NCBI GenBank assembly: GCA_965225855.1
Contig: CBDDCK010000001.1
Span: forward strand, 32,001 to 96,000
Length of the DNA: 64,000 nt
Origin: Spirochaetia bacterium
Lineage (GTDB): Bacteria > Spirochaetota > Spirochaetia > SP-2023
Direction: 5' to 3'
A program made the position numbers and the translations under genes. This document shows positions 24,916 through 44,759 of the stretch, in pieces. The notes beneath the pieces are model-generated. The model searched no databases, was not told the origin of the DNA, and saw only the letters and a list, made by a program, of their open reading frames with translations. How positions within the stretch are numbered: the first letter of the stretch is position 1; the number at the start of each line of letters is the position of its first letter.

Positions 24916-25182
24916 TTATGGGTGAAGCAGGGTATCCAATTGACCTTCATGTTCTAAAGCATACAGATCATCACAGCCACCAATGTGTACCCCGTTGATA
25001 AATATTTGGGGGTAAGTGTGCCTGTTGGAACGCTCTTGCATTTCTTGGCGCAAGCGATCATCTACAGCGGCAGGATATTCTTGCACTACCACGCCTTTAC
25101 TTTGCAGTAACGCCCTAGCTCTTATGCAATACGGGCAGCCATCTTTATAATACATTTCGACTTCAGTTTGGTCTTTGTTCAT
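24916..25182 (-). CDS. grxC: Glutaredoxin 3
   Basis: CPYC, TYPQIFING.HIGGCDDL. Start MNKDQ after AGGAG. Confidence 0.92.
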   Translation of the reverse strand: MNKDQTEVEMYYKDGCPYCIRARALLQSKGVVVQEYPAAVDDRLRQEMQERSNRHTYPQIFINGVHIGGCDDLYALEHEGQLDTLLHP

Positions 25183-25298
25183 ACCAGCTCCTAGTTTCAT
25201 TTTATGGGGTGCGATTATAACTAAAACCCCAGCAAAAGGCAAGAGATAAAATCCAACTTTTCATAGAACTTAGTTTGTCAAGCAAGACACTCATCGCC

Positions 25299-25744: not shown

Positions 25745-25911
25745 CACACAAAAAAAGTGCCCCAAACATAAAAAAGCACAAAAAAACTTACAAAAAGCTT
25801 ACAAAAAGCTTGTATGGGTCTTGACGCAACACCCCCCCTCACAAAATAGGGCACTATACAATAGCCCGTATGGGTTTTGTCAATCTCAAGCCATTTTTGG
25901 AGGTATTGCTT
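25745..25911 (+). promoter_or_regulatory. Promoter/leader of lipoprotein paralogue 1: phased A-tracts, TTGACG-N15(C7)-CAAAAT, GGAGG RBS
   Basis: -35 at 25821-25826, C7 at 25832-25838, putative -10 at 25842-25847; very similar to 42782-42938. Confidence 0.6.
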
Positions 25912-28056
25912 ATGTATAAGCTCAAACTATTTTTATTGCCATTAGCCTGTCTACTGGCCTTTATGGCCTTTGCCTGCGCCCCGCCCGATGACGATGATCG
26001 ATCTTCTGGGCCGTCTTCTGGGCCTGCAATCACCAGTGCAAGCTACGATGTTGGCACGGCTATCTTAACCGTACAAGGTACTGACTTAAGTCCTACAACT
26101 GCGACCCAAGCGCAAATCCAAACTATCAGGGTAGGGAGCCGAACAAATGGTGTAGCCTTCAGTTCCTATACTGCAGATGACGATGCCACTGGGGTAAATA
26201 GTAACGGTCTTGAACAAGGTAAGTACCGTATGAAAAGCGATGGCACAGCGCTTTGGCTTAGACTTACCAATCGACATAAAGCTACTCTTGAGGCCAAGGT
26301 GGGTAGCGATAGTCTAAAAAAAGGGTTGCTTAGCGTTGGCACTGGTACTTGGGCGGGTTTAGATACAGCCAAAGACTTAACCGTTAATATACTCGGTAAG
26401 CCATCTAAGCAAACCGAAGCCGAACAAGACGAACAAGCCGAAGAGCAGTCGCCTAAGCAAACTGAAGACGAACAAACCGAACAAGCCGAAGATAAGCAGT
26501 CTAAGACCGAAACCGAAGAGCAGTCGCCTAAGCAACCTAAAGACGAACAAGTCGAACAAGCTGAACAAGTCGAACAAGCTGAAGAAGAGTCGCCTAAAGC
26601 TGCAATTACCCGTGCCATCTACGATGTTGGCACGGCTATCTTAACTGTACAAGGTACTCACTTAAGTAGTGCGACCCAAGCGCAAATCCAAACCATCAAA
26701 GTATATGACCTAGTCTTAAGTTCCTATATTGCAGATGGCACAGCCACTGGGCCAGATAGTCGCAGTCTTGCAAAAGGTAAGTACCGTATTAAAAGCGATG
26801 GCACAGCGCTTTGGCTGAAACTTACCGATCCACATAAAGCTGCTCTTGAGGCCAAGCCCGGTATGAATAAGGATGGTAGAAAAGTCGGGTTGCTTAGCGT
26901 TGGCACTGGTACTTGGGCGGGTTTAAATACAGCCAAAGACTTAACCGTTAGTGGAAACCCCGACCCCGCAATTACCCGTGCAAGCTACCATGTTGGCACG
27001 GCGCTGCTAACTTTACAAGGTACTCACTTAGGTAGTGCGACCCAAGCCCAAATCCAAACCATCAAAGTATATGGCGTAGTCTTAAGTTCCTATACTGCAG
27101 ATGACCCAGCCACTGGGCCAGATAGTCGCAGTCTTGCAAAAGGTAAGTACCGTATGAAAAGCGATGGCACAGCGCTTTGGCTTAGACTTACCGATGCCGA
27201 TAAAGCTACTCTGAATGACAAGAAAGGTATGGATACCAATGGTCTAAAAGATGGGTTGCTTACTAGCACTGGTACTTGGGCGGGTTTCGATACAGCCAAA
27301 GCCTTAACCGTTAGTGGACACCCACCCGCAATTACCAGTGCAACCTACGATGCTGTTACAGGCTGGTTAGTGATTACAGGTACTAATTTACCAAAAACAG
27401 TTACAGGCTGGGACTTTAGCAAATTGAGGTTTGTCTCAGGTATTGGTCTTGAGAGTCAACCATTAGAAAAGCACTCAACTACAGGTGCAGACAGAGCCAC
27501 AGGTTCTGCAGCAAGTGGCACATTCTTAGTGATTATTTTAGAGGGTGAAGAAAGAATAAAAGCCTCTAATTCATTGACGCAGAATGGTCTTGGTGATGAT
27601 GATGGTGCATACAACCTGAAAGCAGCAGCAGGATTTGCAGGTGGTAGCGCAGCAGACACAAGCAATAACCCGATTACCGTTAGTGGGTATGTAAGCCAGA
27701 TCAGCACCTTATACTACTATCCTAATAAAGGCGAGTTAGTGATTTCTGGTAACAAGTTACCGAAAACAGTTGCAGACTGGGACTTTAGCAAATTGACGCT
27801 TGTATCCGGTGATGGTAATAAGAGATACTCATTACCTAAGCACGCAACAGGTGCTGCAAACACAGCCACAGGTTCTAAGGCAAGTAGAGCAAGCTTATAT
27901 ATTACTTTAAGCGGTAGTGTAAAAGCGGAAGTCGATAAGATACTGGTTAAGGTTGGTTATAGTGATGATGCTGGTGCATACAACCTTAAAGCAGCAGCAG
28001 GATTTGTAACGGGTAATCCAGAAGACTTAACAAATCAGATTAGAGTTGTAGATTAG
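25912..28056 (+). CDS. Modular surface lipoprotein with ~120-aa repeats (A-linker-A-A-B-B), putative adhesin
   Basis: Lipobox FMAFAC; module A (..GKYRMKSDGTALWLRLT..) x3; module B (..WDFSKL..GAYNLKAAAGF..) x2; E/Q-rich linker; start after GGAGG. Confidence 0.85.
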   Translation: MYKLKLFLLPLACLLAFMAFACAPPDDDDRSSGPSSGPAITSASYDVGTAILTVQGTDLSPTTATQAQIQTIRVGSRTNGVAFSSYTADDDATGVNSNGLEQGKYRMKSDGTALWLRLTNRHKATLEAKVGSDSLKKGLLSVGTGTWAGLDTAKDLTVNILGKPSKQTEAEQDEQAEEQSPKQTEDEQTEQAEDKQSKTETEEQSPKQPKDEQVEQAEQVEQAEEESPKAAITRAIYDVGTAILTVQGTHLSSATQAQIQTIKVYDLVLSSYIADGTATGPDSRSLAKGKYRIKSDGTALWLKLTDPHKAALEAKPGMNKDGRKVGLLSVGTGTWAGLNTAKDLTVSGNPDPAITRASYHVGTALLTLQGTHLGSATQAQIQTIKVYGVVLSSYTADDPATGPDSRSLAKGKYRMKSDGTALWLRLTDADKATLNDKKGMDTNGLKDGLLTSTGTWAGFDTAKALTVSGHPPAITSATYDAVTGWLVITGTNLPKTVTGWDFSKLRFVSGIGLESQPLEKHSTTGADRATGSAASGTFLVIILEGEERIKASNSLTQNGLGDDDGAYNLKAAAGFAGGSAADTSNNPITVSGYVSQISTLYYYPNKGELVISGNKLPKTVADWDFSKLTLVSGDGNKRYSLPKHATGAANTATGSKASRASLYITLSGSVKAEVDKILVKVGYSDDAGAYNLKAAAGFVTGNPEDLTNQIRVVD

Positions 28057-32486: not shown

Positions 32487-34013
32487 ATGAATGATAAAAC
32501 TATTTTCCCTATATTTTTAGCTTCGTTGTTTCTTTTCTTGTTATTGAGTTGCTCCAGCACTGATGAACATGATCGTGCTGAATTGGTTGCTGAAGTTCCT
32601 TTTTTACATATACCACCTTTGCTGGATACAGCCAAAGGTAAGGTTACTTTGCGTGCTCAAAAAGGGGAGCATCAAATAATTCCCGGTATTTTCAGTTCTA
32701 GTATGGGTTATAATGGTTGGTTTTTAGGGCCAGCTATATTATTGCACAAAGGTAAACAGGCCCAAATTGAAGTGGTGAATGAGCTAGGGGAAGGAACTAC
32801 TCTTCATTCTCATGGGGCTATTATTCCTGGTTCAGCAGATGGGGGCCCCAGTAAAATTATTGAAGCTGGTACTTCTTGGTTGCTCGAATTTACCGTCGAT
32901 CAGCCGGCAGCAACGCTTTGGTTTCATCCCCATAAAATGGGGAGCACGGCTGCGCAAGTTTGGCAAGGTTTGGCTGGCCTATATATCGTCAGTGATCGAG
33001 ACATTGAAAACCTGCCTCTACCGAAGGATTATGGTAGAGATGATATTCCTATTGTGATTCAAGAACGTTACCTTGATGATCATGGCGAAATGTTGCCTTA
33101 TGAGGACGTTGCTTCTAATCATATGGCGGTGATGAATGGTGTGGGCGGTAATGCGATTTTGATTAATGGGCAGCTGCAGCCCAAATTAGACGCCGCTAGT
33201 GGTTGGTTGCGCCTACGCCTTTTAAATAGTTCTAATGCTAGCAGTTACCGTTTTAGTTTCTACAATCAGCAGCAGAAAAAGCCTATAAATTTTTATCGGA
33301 TTGCCACAGAACAAGGGCTTTTAAATAAGCCGGAAAAGCGAATGCACTTGGACTTGGCAACGGGTAGTCGCACGGAAGTTATGCTTGAATTGCCAAAACA
33401 AGCAGACACGATTCAGCTAGAATTGGCATTGTGGGATCGCAATCTCGATGCGCCCAGTCGGAATCGCTACCCCGTTATGAATATCGAAGTGAATCCCAAA
33501 CAAACGGCCAAAGGCCAATTGCCGGAAATACTGCATGATTCAGATGGTTCAGAACAACAGCAACGCATGATAGAATTGCAAACGATAGCAAACCAGCTCG
33601 CAGAAGCAAGCGAACAAAAAACCACACAACGGAATTTTGAGCTTCAAATGATGAACGGCTCAATGATGTCTCGAGATGGCGCATCACCATATAGTATTAA
33701 CGGCGATGCTTTTCAGGCAAATGCCATTAATTTTGATGTTTCTAAAGGCCGCTATGAAGTTTGGCGATTCACTACCGATATGCTTGGCCATCCGGTTCAC
33801 ATCCACGGTGTACAGTTTCGCATCTTAAAATCTGCCTGGCAACCACAAGGTAGCTCTGGTTGGCATGATACATTTACGATTCAAACGGAAGGCGAAGCAA
33901 TAGTTCTTCTTCGTTTTCCTGAAAATGCCGATGAGGAAAACCCTTACATGCTCCACTGCCACATGTTGGAACATGAAGAAGCGGGCATGATGGCTGCGTT
34001 TACTGTCAGCTAG
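32487..34013 (+). CDS. Multicopper oxidase (CueO-like), lipoprotein
   Basis: All four Cu motifs: HSHG, WFHPH, HPVHIHG, HCHMLEHEEAGMM; lipobox LLLSC. Confidence 0.9.
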   Translation: MNDKTIFPIFLASLFLFLLLSCSSTDEHDRAELVAEVPFLHIPPLLDTAKGKVTLRAQKGEHQIIPGIFSSSMGYNGWFLGPAILLHKGKQAQIEVVNELGEGTTLHSHGAIIPGSADGGPSKIIEAGTSWLLEFTVDQPAATLWFHPHKMGSTAAQVWQGLAGLYIVSDRDIENLPLPKDYGRDDIPIVIQERYLDDHGEMLPYEDVASNHMAVMNGVGGNAILINGQLQPKLDAASGWLRLRLLNSSNASSYRFSFYNQQQKKPINFYRIATEQGLLNKPEKRMHLDLATGSRTEVMLELPKQADTIQLELALWDRNLDAPSRNRYPVMNIEVNPKQTAKGQLPEILHDSDGSEQQQRMIELQTIANQLAEASEQKTTQRNFELQMMNGSMMSRDGASPYSINGDAFQANAINFDVSKGRYEVWRFTTDMLGHPVHIHGVQFRILKSAWQPQGSSGWHDTFTIQTEGEAIVLLRFPENADEENPYMLHCHMLEHEEAGMMAAFTVS

Positions 34014-34032
34014 TTATCAAATTTTGATTAGC

Positions 34033-34164
34033 TTATTGGCAAGCTTCACAATCAGGGTCGCTTAGCACACAAAGTCGCACCTCCTGATTGTGTTCCAGCA
34101 TGTTTTCGCTCATAATGAAATCTTCCTCTTGCTGCTCAAGATCATCCCAATCCAACATGTTCAT
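34033..34164 (-). CDS. Uncalled 43-aa peptide carrying an RNR-alpha-type C-terminal Cys tail (MNMLDWDDLEQQEEDFIMSENMLEHNQEVRLCVLSDPDCEACQ)
   Basis: GAGGGG RBS upstream of the ATG; in-frame TAA two codons before the ATG; ends C-x6-CEACQ like NrdA C-termini; 79 bp downstream of nrdA. Confidence 0.8.
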   Translation of the reverse strand: MNMLDWDDLEQQEEDFIMSENMLEHNQEVRLCVLSDPDCEACQ

Positions 34165-34243
34165 TTTTTATTTCCCCTCACTTTACTTTTTTATATTCTT
34201 CGACTGTTAGCTAGAGCTTCTCAAATATTTTTTGTATAAAATT

Positions 34244-36586
34244 TTAATTCCCCCCTATAGATATTGATTTTTCTGTAGATGTTGCACCTAGTCCGCGTAA
34301 ATAATACGTTGTTTTTAAGCCACGTAACCAAGCTATACGATAGGTTATATCAATTTTTTTTCCGTTAGCCTGCCCCATATAAATATTGAGAGACTGGGCT
34401 TGGTCAATCCATTTTTGCCTGCGGGCTGCAGCTTCTATTGTCCAGCGTGGGTCTAATTCAAAAGCGGTTAAATATCTTTGTTTAAGTTCTTCGGGAATAG
34501 ACTCGATATGCTGCACGCTGCCACCTGAACGTTTGAGCTTTTCCAGTAGCTCATTGGTCCACAAGCCCAAGGCACGCAATTCTGCCACTAAATAACGGTT
34601 AATGATGGTAAATTCTCCCGACAAGTTGGACTTGACGTAGACATTTTGAAAAGTGGGCTCTATAGATTGGCTAACTCCGACAATATTGGATATTGTTGCT
34701 GTAGGGGCAATTGCCATCACGTTAGAATTTCGCATACCTTCACGTACTTTTTGCCGCAATTCAGACCAATCCAAATTTTGACTGCGGTCGAGTTCTAAAT
34801 AATCCTCACCACGATTTTGGGCTAGTAATTCAATACTGTCAATAGGCAGTATACCTTGGTGCCATAGTGAATTGACAAAAGTTTTATAGCTCCCTCGCTC
34901 TTTGGCCAAATTGTGTGAAGCTTCAATCGCATAGTAGGAAATCCATTCAACAGAATTATCGGCAAATTGAACTGCCTCCTCCGAGCTAAAAGAAATACCC
35001 AATTTATACAGTGCATCTTGAAAACCCATCATGCCCAGACCGACTGGACGGTGTTGCATATTACTTTGGCGGGCTTTGTCTACAGCGTAATAATTAATAT
35101 CAATTACATTGTCTAACATTCGCATGGCCGTGCGAATAGTTTGCCGCAGCTTATTTTTTTGCAACTCGCCATTTTCAATATGCGCTGCCAAATTGATAGA
35201 ACCCAAATTACAAACCGCTATTTCTTTGTCGTTGGTATTTAAGGTAATTTCTGTACAAAGATTTGATGAATGCACTTGGCCAACGTGTTGTTGTGGGTTG
35301 CGCAAGTTGCAAGGGTCTTTAAAAGTCATCCATGGGTGCCCCGTTTCAAATAACATGGATAGGATTTTGCGCCACAAGGTTACAGCTTCCAACTTTTTGT
35401 GCCATAATTTTCCATCTACAGCCAACACTTGGTATTCTGCGTATCGCTCTTCAAATGCACGACCGTAAAGGTCGTGTAGGTCGCTGACATCGGAAGGGGA
35501 AAATAAAAACCACGGGCCGTTTTCTAATACTCGTTTTACTAGCAAATCTGGTACCCAAATTGCGGTATTCATATCGTGGGTACGGCGGCGTTCGTCTCCA
35601 GTATTTTTGCGCAGCTCTATAAACTCTTCAATATCCAAATGCCAAACTTCTAAGTAAGCGCAAGTGGCTCCTTTGCGCTTCCCACCTTGGTTTACAGCTA
35701 CCGCTGTATCGTTTACGACTTTTAAAAACGGAACAACCCCTTGGCTTTTACCATTGGTTCCTTTGATATGCGACCCCATAGCCCTAACGGGCGTCCAATC
35801 GTTGCCCAAGCCGCCAGCCCATTTCGATAACATAGCGTTGTCATGGATTGCATTAAAAATACCGTCCAGATCATCGGGTACGGTAGTTAAATAACAAGAT
35901 GATAATTGAGAATGCAGAGTACCTGAATTAAACAAAGTTGGGGTTGAGGTCATATAGTCAAAACTAGAAATTAAATTATAAAACTCAATAGCCCTTTGTG
36001 TGGGTTGCTGTTCTTGCAAAGCAAGCCCCATGGCCACACGCATAAAAAATATTTGGGGCAGCTCTAAGCGAACATTGTCTTGATTTAAGAAATAACGGTC
36101 GTAGAGAGTTTGCAATCCGATATATTGAAATTGCAGATCACGTTCTGGTTTTAGGGCATCGGCGAGTGTTTCTAAGTCAAAACGAGTTGCCATTTCTGGT
36201 GTTAGCAATTCCGCTTCAATACCTTTTGGGATATATACGAGGAAAATTTGTCTATAAATATCTTTTAAATTTTGTTGATTGGAAAGGTCTATATCTTGGA
36301 TATGATAAGCTTTGCGAATGTCTTCTGAAAATAATTTGTACAGCAGCAACCTAGCCGCAACATAACTATAATTGGGTTCCCGCTCAACTAATGTGCGGCT
36401 ATTGATTAGCAAGGCCGTATGCAATTCTGATTGGGTAATGCCTTTGTATAGACTGCGCAGCGTGTTGTTTAGAATTTCTTGGCCATCAACTCTGGCCACA
36501 TCTTGCACTGCATAGTGAATGATTTCCTGTATTAGATTTGTGTCAAAAGATTGATTTTCTCTTAATAGAGATTTGTCTACAAGCAT
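34244..36586 (-). CDS. nrdA: Class I ribonucleotide reductase alpha subunit (Pseudomonas/Chlamydia-like group), lacking the C-terminal Cys pair
   Basis: TPTLFNSG, QLSSCYL, NQGGKRKGA, SSNLCTEI, VCNLGS, APTATIS, TTYYLR; ends ATSTEKSISIGGN*. Confidence 0.95.
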   Translation of the reverse strand: MLVDKSLLRENQSFDTNLIQEIIHYAVQDVARVDGQEILNNTLRSLYKGITQSELHTALLINSRTLVEREPNYSYVAARLLLYKLFSEDIRKAYHIQDIDLSNQQNLKDIYRQIFLVYIPKGIEAELLTPEMATRFDLETLADALKPERDLQFQYIGLQTLYDRYFLNQDNVRLELPQIFFMRVAMGLALQEQQPTQRAIEFYNLISSFDYMTSTPTLFNSGTLHSQLSSCYLTTVPDDLDGIFNAIHDNAMLSKWAGGLGNDWTPVRAMGSHIKGTNGKSQGVVPFLKVVNDTAVAVNQGGKRKGATCAYLEVWHLDIEEFIELRKNTGDERRRTHDMNTAIWVPDLLVKRVLENGPWFLFSPSDVSDLHDLYGRAFEERYAEYQVLAVDGKLWHKKLEAVTLWRKILSMLFETGHPWMTFKDPCNLRNPQQHVGQVHSSNLCTEITLNTNDKEIAVCNLGSINLAAHIENGELQKNKLRQTIRTAMRMLDNVIDINYYAVDKARQSNMQHRPVGLGMMGFQDALYKLGISFSSEEAVQFADNSVEWISYYAIEASHNLAKERGSYKTFVNSLWHQGILPIDSIELLAQNRGEDYLELDRSQNLDWSELRQKVREGMRNSNVMAIAPTATISNIVGVSQSIEPTFQNVYVKSNLSGEFTIINRYLVAELRALGLWTNELLEKLKRSGGSVQHIESIPEELKQRYLTAFELDPRWTIEAAARRQKWIDQAQSLNIYMGQANGKKIDITYRIAWLRGLKTTYYLRGLGATSTEKSISIGGN

Positions 36587-36680: not shown

Positions 36681-36738
36681 ACCACAATATATTGTGGTTT
36701 CTCTACCATTTATTGGGTAAAACATACAACATATTGCG
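36681..36738. promoter_or_regulatory. NrdR boxes (three, 21-bp spacing)
   Basis: Perfect palindrome ACCACAATATATTGTGGT; cores CAATATATTG (36685), CCATTTATTG (36706), CAACATATTG (36727) upstream of nrdA. Confidence 0.8.
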
Positions 36739-36743
36739 CTACT

Positions 36744-36771
36744 ATGATAAGAATCGTGGGTAAACTGTCAA
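36744..36771 (-). promoter_or_regulatory. sigma70-type promoter of nrdA
   Basis: TTGACA-N16-TATCAT on the minus strand, immediately upstream of the NrdR boxes. Confidence 0.65.
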
Positions 36772-42781: not shown

Positions 42782-42938
42782 AACACAAAAAAAGTGCCCC
42801 AAACACAAAAAAAGCACAAAAAAACTTACAAAAAGCCTTATAAAGGCCTTGACGCAACACCCCCCCTAGCAAAATGGGGCGCTGTACACTAGCCCGTATG
42901 GGTTGGTTAATCTTTACCCATTTTTGGAGGTATTGCTT
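42782..42938 (+). promoter_or_regulatory. Promoter/leader of lipoprotein paralogue 2: phased A-tracts, TTGACG-N15(C7)-CAAAAT
   Basis: -35 at 42849-42854, C7 at 42860-42866, putative -10 at 42870-42875; homologous to 25745-25911. Confidence 0.6.
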
Positions 42939-44759
42939 ATGTATAAGCTCAAACTACTTTTATTGCCTGTAGCCTGGCTACTGGCCTTTATGGCCTTTGC
43001 CTGCGCCCCACCCGATGACAACGATGACAATGGTGCGCCGTCTTCTGGGCCGACTATCAATAACGCCATCTACGACTTTGCTACGGCTCTGTTAACCGTA
43101 CAAGGTACTGACTTAAGTCCTACAGAAGCGCAAATCCAAACCATCGTAGTAGATGGTGTAGCCTTAAGTTCCTATACTGCAGATGCTAAACCCACTGGGC
43201 CAGATAGTAGCGGTCTTGCAGAAGGTAAGTACCGTATGAAAAGCGATGGCACAGCGCTTTGGCTTAGACTTACCAATCAACATAAATCTACTCTGAATGG
43301 CAAGGTGGGTAGCAATGGTCTAAAAAAAGGGTTGCTTAGCGTTGGCTCTGGTGCTTGGGCGGGTTTAAATACAGCCAAAGACTTAACCGTTAGGAATATA
43401 CCCGATAAGCAGTCTAAAGTATCCGATGACAATCAGCCATCTAAGCAAACTGAAGAAGCTGAACAAGACGAACAAGCTGAAGAAGTCGAACAAGCTGAAG
43501 ATAAGCAGTCGCCTGAACTACCCGAAGCCGAACAAACCGAAGAAGTCGAACAAACCGAAGAAGTCGAACAAGCTGAAGATAAGCAGTCGCCTAAGCAACC
43601 TAAAGACGAACAAGTCGAACAAGCTGAAGAAGAGTCGCCTGAACTACCCGAAGCTGCAATTACCCGTGCAACCTACAATGTTATTTTAGGCTTGTTAGTG
43701 ATTACAGGTACTAATTTACCAGCAGCAGTTGCAAGATGGGACTTTAGCAAATTGACGCTTGTATCCGGTGATGGTACTAATAGATACACATTACCCCGGC
43801 CAGAAAAAGAAGCCGTAGGTTTTGAAAGTAGAAACAGAGCCATAGGTTCTAATGCAAGTACAACAGGCTTACAGATTACTTTAATTGGTAGTGTAAAAGC
43901 GGAAGCCGAGAAGATACTGGTTAACGATGGTGTTCGTGATGCTAATGGTGCATACAACCTGGAAGCAGCAGCAGGATTTGCAGGTGGTAGCGCTGAAGAC
44001 ACAACCAACTCGATTACCGTTAGCGGGTATACAGCCAGCATCACCGAAGTAGACTACAATGCTAATACAGGCGAGTTATCTATTAGAGGTATCAAGTTAC
44101 CGAGAGCAGTTGCAGACTGGGACTTTAGCAAATTGACGCTTGTATCCGGTGATGGTAGTAAGAGATACCCATTACCCCGGCACGAAACTGCAGGTGAAAA
44201 CACAGCCACAGGTTCTCGTGCAGGTACAACCTACTTAAGTATTACTTTAAGCGGTAGTGTAAAAGCGGAAGCCGAGAAGATACTGGTTAAGGAAGGTGTT
44301 CGTGATGCTAATGGTGCATACAACCTGGAAGCAGCAGCAGAATTTTTACCTGGTAGCGCAGAAGACCTAACCAACCCGATTACCGTTAGCGGGTATACAG
44401 CCAGCATCAGCTCCGTAACCTACGATGCTTATTTAGGCGAGTTAACTATTAGAGGTATCAGGTTACCGAGAGCAGTTACAGACTGGGACTTTAGCAAATT
44501 GACGATTGTATCCGGTGATGGTAGTAAGAGATACCCATTACCCCGGCACTCAACTGCAGGTGCAAACAGAGCCACAGGTTCTCGTGCAGATGCAACAAGA
44601 TTAACGATTACTTTAAGCGGTAATGTAAAAGCCAAAGTCAATGTTATACTGGTTAAGATTGGTAAAAGTGATAATGCTGGTGCATATAACCTGGAAGCAG
44701 CAGCAGAATTTGTATCTGGTAGTCCAGAAGACCTAACCACTAGTATTAATGTTATATAA
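42939..44759 (+). CDS. Modular surface lipoprotein (A-linker-B-B-B), paralogue of 25912..28056
   Basis: Near-identical signal peptide and lipobox, one A module, E/Q linker, three B modules. Confidence 0.85.
   Translation: MYKLKLLLLPVAWLLAFMAFACAPPDDNDDNGAPSSGPTINNAIYDFATALLTVQGTDLSPTEAQIQTIVVDGVALSSYTADAKPTGPDSSGLAEGKYRMKSDGTALWLRLTNQHKSTLNGKVGSNGLKKGLLSVGSGAWAGLNTAKDLTVRNIPDKQSKVSDDNQPSKQTEEAEQDEQAEEVEQAEDKQSPELPEAEQTEEVEQTEEVEQAEDKQSPKQPKDEQVEQAEEESPELPEAAITRATYNVILGLLVITGTNLPAAVARWDFSKLTLVSGDGTNRYTLPRPEKEAVGFESRNRAIGSNASTTGLQITLIGSVKAEAEKILVNDGVRDANGAYNLEAAAGFAGGSAEDTTNSITVSGYTASITEVDYNANTGELSIRGIKLPRAVADWDFSKLTLVSGDGSKRYPLPRHETAGENTATGSRAGTTYLSITLSGSVKAEAEKILVKEGVRDANGAYNLEAAAEFLPGSAEDLTNPITVSGYTASISSVTYDAYLGELTIRGIRLPRAVTDWDFSKLTIVSGDGSKRYPLPRHSTAGANRATGSRADATRLTITLSGNVKAKVNVILVKIGKSDNAGAYNLEAAAEFVSGSPEDLTTSINVI

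Follow-up and report, generated by a model that had tools for sequence, protein, structure and literature searches.

The present analysis of a 64,000-nucleotide stretch of DNA from a Spirochaetia bacterium (the window) indicates that the alpha subunit of its class Ia ribonucleotide reductase (RNR), NrdA, ends without the redox-active cysteine tail, and that a tail of this type is encoded by a separate ORF directly behind it. From the sequence evidence set out below, we consider it quite probable that this free peptide is a trans-acting redox shuttle in a class Ia RNR formed from three chains, a tail-less alpha, a beta subunit, and the free 43-aa redox peptide, the last of which would replace the tethered tail and work in trans. 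In class I enzymes, the active-site disulfide is described as being reduced by the Cys pair of the alpha tail, which is itself reduced by a redoxin (PMC11903788). Each class I turnover includes re-reduction by this flexible tail. The features of the region are collected in Table 1.

Table 1. Positions in the window of features in and around nrdA and the free peptide
Feature	Position	Strand	Remark
Sigma-70-like promoter, TTGACA-16-TATCAT, upstream of NrdR box	36744..36771	-	11/12, consensus match only
Palindromic NrdR-box-like site upstream of nrdA	36683..36696	.	sole exact genome match to consensus
nrdA, class Ia RNR alpha (PRK07207, Pseudomonas type)	36586..34244	-	780 aa
C231 (SSCYL), first active-site redox Cys	35894..35896	-	role by analogy with B. 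subtilis C170
C444 (NLCTE), thiyl-radical Cys of finger loop	35255..35257	-	
C459 (VCNL), second active-site redox Cys	35210..35212	-	
Y761-Y762 (TYYLR), Tyr pair	34301..34306	-	invariant in 32 aligned NrdA
Intergenic gap	34165..34243	-	79 nt, closed in three frames
GAGGGG, RBS-like	34174..34179	-	9 nt 5′ of peptide ATG
Free redox-tail peptide	34164..34033	-	43 aa, strongly acidic
M3-L4-D5-W6-D7, candidate docking motif	34144..34158	-	common to NrdB N- and C-termini
C32-x6-C39-x2-C42-Q43, NrdA-type redox tail	34036..34071	-	

NrdA is assigned to the class Ia alpha subunits by a score of 1365 bits with the PRK07207 profile (curated cut-off 965), of whose 965 positions it covers 158-920 in a profile search; class II profiles score lower on it, the best being TIGR02504 with 409 bits. 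Both PF00317 and PF02867 are matched, the catalytic barrel is whole, and the top PDB match, 5IM3, aligns query residues 15-775 with chain residues 161-918. The three active-site cysteines, the NLCxE motif, and the YY pair of class Ia enzymes are present, and we take the last to be the radical-transfer tyrosine pair. NLCxE is described as the finger-loop motif of class I in PMC9669993, and the role of C231 is based on that of C170 in B. subtilis as given in PMC11903788. The covalent C-terminal Cys pair of the class is absent from NrdA, which ends in ...ATSTEKSISIGGN* and has no cysteine beyond C459; the tail is a separate ORF. NrdA also lacks the first ~150 residues, the N-terminal ATP-cone, that are present in gammaproteobacterial relatives, and in an alignment with Pseudomonas NrdA its N terminus falls at about residue 152-160 of the latter. 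Among its best homologues, PF03477 (ATP-cone) was found in P0011-P0120 and in none of P0001-P0010.

A sequence-only reading of this DNA had claimed that NrdA keeps its catalytic motifs without terminal cysteines, that a 43-aa tail ORF preceded by GAGGGG lies 79 bp downstream, and that the gap between the two is closed in all frames. The residues named above bear out the first point, and the coordinates and sequence of the ORF and its match to PRK07207 positions 935-965 (E 0.0068, profile search) agree with the second; each frame of the gap is closed, by 2, 3, and 2 stops, respectively, and a TAA stands two codons 5′ of the peptide ATG. The peptide has an M-L-x-W-D start, followed by an acidic stretch with D-F and then by C-x6-C-x2-C-Q, and all 17 free peptides in the alignment share the three cysteines and the tryptophan. 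Its NCBIfam match is to the NrdA tail only, no Pfam family matches it, none of 17 peptides was matched in PHROGs, and the ESM Atlas gave unnamed clusters of 41-43 aa at 0.90-0.92, a recognition below the reliable level. No gene is present in the gap anywhere in the genus (79-133 nt), and no terminator-like site was found on the minus strand between nrdA and the peptide.

It is extremely improbable that the split reflects a decaying gene or an error of assembly. The window does come from a 5-contig assembly and the NrdB of its genome has diverged, as described below, but the same split is found in a contig from a second study and in three other species. This contig (X4, depth 2) spans positions 33700-34900 without interruption, showing 20 substitutions relative to the window and no gap in the alignment; among the 19 substitutions listed, none lies in the gap and one in the peptide (34160, N2S). 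Contigs X1 and X3 are identical to the window here but may be its source, and the reads of run X5 leave most of the gap and the peptide uncovered. The database proteins P0002 (99% identical) and P0124 (98% identical) likewise show this NrdA end and the N2S form of the peptide; NCBI names the proteins of the group Candidatus Haliotispira prima and annotates the peptide as a hypothetical protein. Within the genus, the split is present in all four genomes (G000, that of the window, and G001-G003). The NrdA of G001, G002, and G003 is 79-81% identical to that of the window, stops 22-26 residues past YYLR, and is directly followed by a 46-49-aa ORF ending in CEACQ. Contig X4 and these three genomes refute an assembly error, in keeping with the earlier view that a sequencing indel does not account for the split, and they answer the question it had raised of whether relatives share it. 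Between the four genomes, synonymous sites are near saturation, with pS 0.71-1.06 for the peptide and 0.67-0.93 for NrdA, yet both proteins are conserved (pN 0.21-0.30 and 0.10-0.15, respectively), which speaks against decay, as does the failure to find another RNR. The pN of the peptide is 0.04-0.17 over its last 13 codons, and 16 of the 49 columns of the genus alignment are invariant; these comparisons indicate that the peptide is under purifying selection in the genus.

A fusion of the two ORFs by recoding (readthrough, frameshift, or ribosome hop) or by RNA splicing is very improbable. In favour of such a process, the ORFs are neighbours that retain the ancestral order, and the nrdA stop of the window genome comes after a G-run; however, the gaps in the four genomes are 79, 105, 111, and 133 nt long with phases of 1, 0, 0, and 1, and this variation in length and phase argues against recoding. 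The gaps also contain extra stops and no conserved sequence, each peptide of the genus has its own ATG and purine-rich leader, and in the megaplasmids discussed below the two pieces are over 100 kb apart. Readthrough and frameshifting are thus largely refuted by the gap phases, the stops, and the separate starts.

PF02867 has one match in each of the four genus genomes, and searches of the window genome, which is 94% complete, found no second alpha and neither a class II nor a class III enzyme; a class III RNR was found in G003 only, one of four genomes with completeness of 89-94%. Because NrdA is the only RNR found in its genome, the tail-less enzyme is the sole visible source of dNTPs there. 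Each genome of the genus has one beta subunit. That of G000, the single PF00268 match (G000:C5:887275-888576), is away from nrdA and retains the aligned D, ExxH, and Y of a beta subunit, presumably the metal ligands (D and ExxH) and the radical tyrosine (Y). The G000 NrdB is strongly diverged from the NrdB of its relatives. The gene order is nrdA, peptide, nrdB in G001 and G003, and the peptide remains beside nrdA in G000 and G002, where nrdB has moved away. Genes for thioredoxin and glutaredoxin are present, as is nrdR (G000:C5:1522887-1523333). In the scan for the NrdR-box consensus, two matches were reached in 23 of 100 shuffles once a single mismatch was tolerated. The split, its conservation, the selection on the peptide, its co-occurrence with a tail-less alpha, and the likeness of its motif to those of NrdB can be read from the sequences themselves, and the conserved split and the selection, together with the failure to find another RNR in the genome, make a trans-acting tail the best reading, which supports the sequence-only proposal that the tail works in trans.

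The Cys tail is fused in 109 of the 120 best homologues listed. The 11 tail-less proteins are P0001-P0010 and P0026. The first ten are of the window's clade (71-100% identity), with genomic context for those other than P0006 and P0008-P0010; among them are the window protein and one gene that is represented by two different starts. P0026 is a 925-aa protein without genomic context that looks mosaic. P0125, a candidate free peptide, was rejected as a fragment of a fused tail. The Cys pair is fused at all 71 GTDB loci with a complete C terminus (the other 8 of 79 are cut off) and, across 401 genomes of the phylum, in 11 of 11 other spirochaete NrdA. A survey of 6,779 alpha subunits describes class I as having the C-terminal Cys pair almost exclusively (PMC9669993). 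The nearest fused relatives are gammaproteobacterial, and nrdA therefore probably reached the spirochaete lineage by transfer.

In the spirochaete G009 (96% complete), a tail-less NrdA is followed directly by nrdB, and no peptide of the free-tail family was found there at E ≤ 1, so that a tail-less alpha need not come with a free-tail peptide. This genome lends some support to the view, which we regard as unlikely, that the peptide is mainly a regulator, its L-x-W-D competing with beta or blocking the active site while a redoxin or small thiol reduces alpha directly. Peptides also occur on plasmids and prophages without alpha; beta C-terminal peptides are described as inhibitors of RNR (PMC3483043), and a free Neurospora tail fragment as forming a toxic complex with yeast Rnr1 (PMC3618301). 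However, three invariant cysteines would be superfluous for a pure competitor, the peptide is directly behind the only alpha gene in four of four genus genomes, and direct reduction of the DTT type is described as less efficient than reduction through the tail (PMC4520616).

Profile searches yielded 5 further peptides of the free-tail type, and the pattern M..W[DNE]..F..C..CxxC fits 69 of the 120 best small proteins. Free peptides account for 75 of 126 examined proteins and have 40-62 aa and a median net charge of -11; genomic context covers a minority of the 75. Four Pseudomonas megaplasmids (CP136011.1, NZ_CP032678.1, NZ_CP143488.1, and NZ_CP031226.1) carry a tail-less NrdA, a beta subunit, and a free peptide, which is 110-140 kb from nrdA in all four, and a separate peptide was found on none of four plasmids with a fused NrdA, these eight being the plasmids opened among 181 with an NrdA match. 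On four smaller Pseudomonas plasmids, nrdB is followed by the peptide and alpha is absent (0/4). In G001, two additional peptides are intact in prophage remnants, where they follow Mu Gam-like genes; one of these is beside a Mu portal gene, and three broken copies are also present in this genome. The occurrence of plasmid and prophage peptides without alpha means that the peptide is also kept without a tail-less alpha on the same element. A metagenome pattern scan gave 8 loci, 6 of them free peptides (two of identical sequence), the remaining L127 and L129 being rejected as chance matches. A DNA pattern scan of viral contigs gave 0 matches, and a phage collection queried with one peptide gave only 2, both fused NrdA tails.

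The four alpha-less plasmids, in which the peptide comes directly after nrdB, bear on its binding partner, and there is a minor but appreciable chance that it is a beta-associated shuttle whose motif binds beta or a redoxin and not alpha, with the same chemistry as the trans-acting shuttle proposed here. The motif is also that of the NrdB N terminus, of whose role no description was found, and the alpha tail of B. subtilis is proposed to contact beta (PMC11903788). In contrast, the peptide stays with nrdA in the two genomes where nrdB has moved away, and NrdB itself terminates in this motif, which in that position is expected to bind alpha.

Motif comparisons indicate that the peptide is not simply a cut-off alpha end, for it has an added L-x-W-D motif common to both NrdB ends. 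W[DEN] is present in 0 of 71 fused tails; of 67 neighbouring NrdB, 53 have it close to the N terminus, mostly as L-S-W-D-D/E, and L-x-W is found at the C terminus of 61 of 63 NrdB. An acidic-Phe motif in 15 of the 71 fused tails suggests that the D-F of the peptide may derive from the alpha linker. Recombination or tandem duplication across the junction of the nrdA end and the nrdB start could have generated a hybrid ORF, an origin that fits the position of the peptide between nrdA and nrdB in G001 and G003, and once such an ORF existed alpha could have lost its own tail. P0212 and P0236 look like fresh fusions of an nrdB start with an nrdA end, and may be assembly chimeras. The detached tail also hints that the conserved M-L-x-W-D with which Pseudomonas-type beta subunits begin has a function. 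In a tree of 33 of the 62 alpha cores collected (quick LG+G4, excluding P0026 and G009), the tail-less NrdA of the spirochaetes and those of the megaplasmids form two separate groups, each with a support of 100, and a single origin of both is rejected (p-AU 0.008) in an AU test posed after the FastTree topology had been viewed; the megaplasmid split probably had an origin separate from that in the spirochaetes.

As a trans-acting shuttle, the peptide would be translated from its own start, bind the enzyme, and transfer electrons, and L-x-W-D and D-F most likely stand in for the covalent tether by providing this binding, although the candidate docking motif is short, at four residues. Docking could plausibly occur at or near the alpha cleft that takes the C terminus of beta (...GAL-x-W-D); the W-D motif is a plausible anchor because the beta C terminus is described as binding a cleft on alpha (PMC11903788, PMC3483043). 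A prediction of the alpha-peptide complex gave a median score of 0.30 relative to a mark of 0.32, with controls not folded. Among precedents for transfer in trans, NrdJb is described as supplying thiol exchange in the class II enzyme of P. aeruginosa (PMC4520616), inter-subunit transfer is described for S. nassauensis NrdJd (PMC5704485), and the yeast tail is said to enter the active site of the neighbouring subunit (PMC3618301). A wider proposal, which we put forward tentatively and at slightly less than even chances, is that the family of 40-62-aa peptides supplies class I RNR with a third, diffusible subunit that combines the L-x-W-D of beta with the Cys tail of alpha, docks on the enzyme, and recharges it. 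Such a subunit would have arisen more than once, probably by recombination between nrdB starts and nrdA ends, would have let alpha lose its tail, and would travel on plasmids and prophages, whether or not these also encode alpha, as a means of accelerating or adjusting the dNTP supply of the host. Small plasmid and prophage genes now annotated as hypothetical may therefore act on the host RNR. With the tail in the form of a separate peptide, the re-reduction step becomes open to direct testing, because the tail could be titrated, mutated, or trapped while alpha is left unchanged, and the site at which it binds could be mapped.

The sequence-only reading knew of no split in class I. This needs to be qualified, because the two-gene class I alpha of phage Aeh1, NrdA-a/NrdA-b, is described as having new termini that serve assembly (PMC3045599), but a detached class I tail was not found to have been reported: no account of one was found in the open-licence PMC and bioRxiv literature, supplements aside, and the passages of 10.1101/2022.04.23.489257 that concern tail-less and split forms discuss them for class II only. 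The Aeh1 alpha is described as interrupted within the barrel by the endonuclease gene mobE, with the active site divided between the pieces (PMC3045599), whereas here the barrel is whole, no homing endonuclease gene or other element is present in the gap, and the detachment affects the tail alone. The NrdJa/NrdJb pair is similar in consisting of a catalytic chain and a separate chain with C-terminal cysteines, and NrdJb is described as carrying out thiol-disulfide exchange (PMC4520616). However, NrdJb is a folded Cys-rich domain of a B12 enzyme (as described in PMC5704485 and PMC9669993), and the second chains here are acidic peptides of 40-62 aa, that of the window having 43 aa, three cysteines, and no Pfam match. 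Unlike class II NrdJa, which has an NPCxE loop, B12, and no beta, the present enzyme is oxygen-dependent, belongs to class I, and has both a beta subunit and an NLCTE loop; the split class II enzyme is a working model, but the window system is not a member of it. Sml1-type inhibitors and beta C-terminal peptides are, like the free peptide, short and acidic with an aromatic anchor, and they bind alpha; they inhibit and have no redox cysteines, whereas the free peptide keeps the full Cys tail. For the beta C-terminal peptides, these properties are described in PMC3483043. The fused-tail Pseudomonas NrdA (PRK07207; P. aeruginosa, 5IM3) has the same barrel, with about 65-68% identity, the same C-x6-C-x2-C-Q tail, and the same predicted chemistry, but in the system described here the tail is encoded by a distinct gene that has a start of its own and adds an L-x-W-D/D-F leader, and alpha is without the first ATP-cone.

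In the window, 19 nt separate the end of the CueO-like multicopper oxidase gene from the stop codon of the free tail peptide, and no terminator-like site was found between these two genes. The CPYC glutaredoxin is a candidate electron donor. The three paralogous lipoprotein-like ORFs all contain acidic E/Q repeats and repeated β-rich modules.

Coordinates of the features discussed (G000, source genome; G001, a relative in the same genus; G009, another spirochaete)
Feature	Location	Strand	Remark
Glutaredoxin gene (CPYC)	window 24919-25260	-	~9 kb away from peptide
CueO-like multicopper oxidase	window 32487-34013	+	convergent with peptide gene
Repeat-rich lipoprotein-like ORFs	window 25870-28056 and 42903-44759	+	paralogous
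Further paralogue of these ORFs	G000:C5:890629-892857
nrdB, L001	G000:C5:887275-888576		away from nrdA (unlinked)
Free tail peptide, L167/L168	G001:C4:24634-24759 and C4:895240-895365		41 aa, two identical copies
NrdA without C-terminal Cys, L010	G009:C2:242016-244250		52% identity, other spirochaete

Both G001 copies lie in prophage remnants, where they are immediately preceded by Mu Gam-like genes and one adjoins a Mu portal gene; three degenerate copies (L169-L171) are also present in this genome. Among the database proteins, P0187, P0189, P0203, and P0205 are 42-residue free tail peptides that have the D-F motif and lack the W-D motif, and P0239 and P0241 represent another type, ending in CEACGS. 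In G009, nrdB lies directly 3′ of the tail-less nrdA, and no member of the free-peptide family was found in the genome.

On four Pseudomonas plasmids (NZ_CP018048.1, NZ_AP015030.1, NZ_CP093017.1, and NZ_CP096823.1; L159-L162), a free tail peptide is encoded behind nrdB and there is no gene for the α subunit; if this peptide acts on ribonucleotide reductase, its target must be the host enzyme. For the tail-less nrdA genes on Pseudomonas megaplasmids (L138, L139, and L141), the plasmid gene tables have no entry and the locus-tag numbering jumps at their positions; the source records may flag them as pseudogenes.

The NrdB of the source genome has diverged far more than those of the three relatives; it lacks the M-L-x-W-D start and retains the ligands and the L-x-W-D C terminus. 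In the NrdA of the window (36586-36100), as throughout the clade, the first of the two ATP-cones present in the Pseudomonas type is missing, so control of activity by dATP may be lost or changed.
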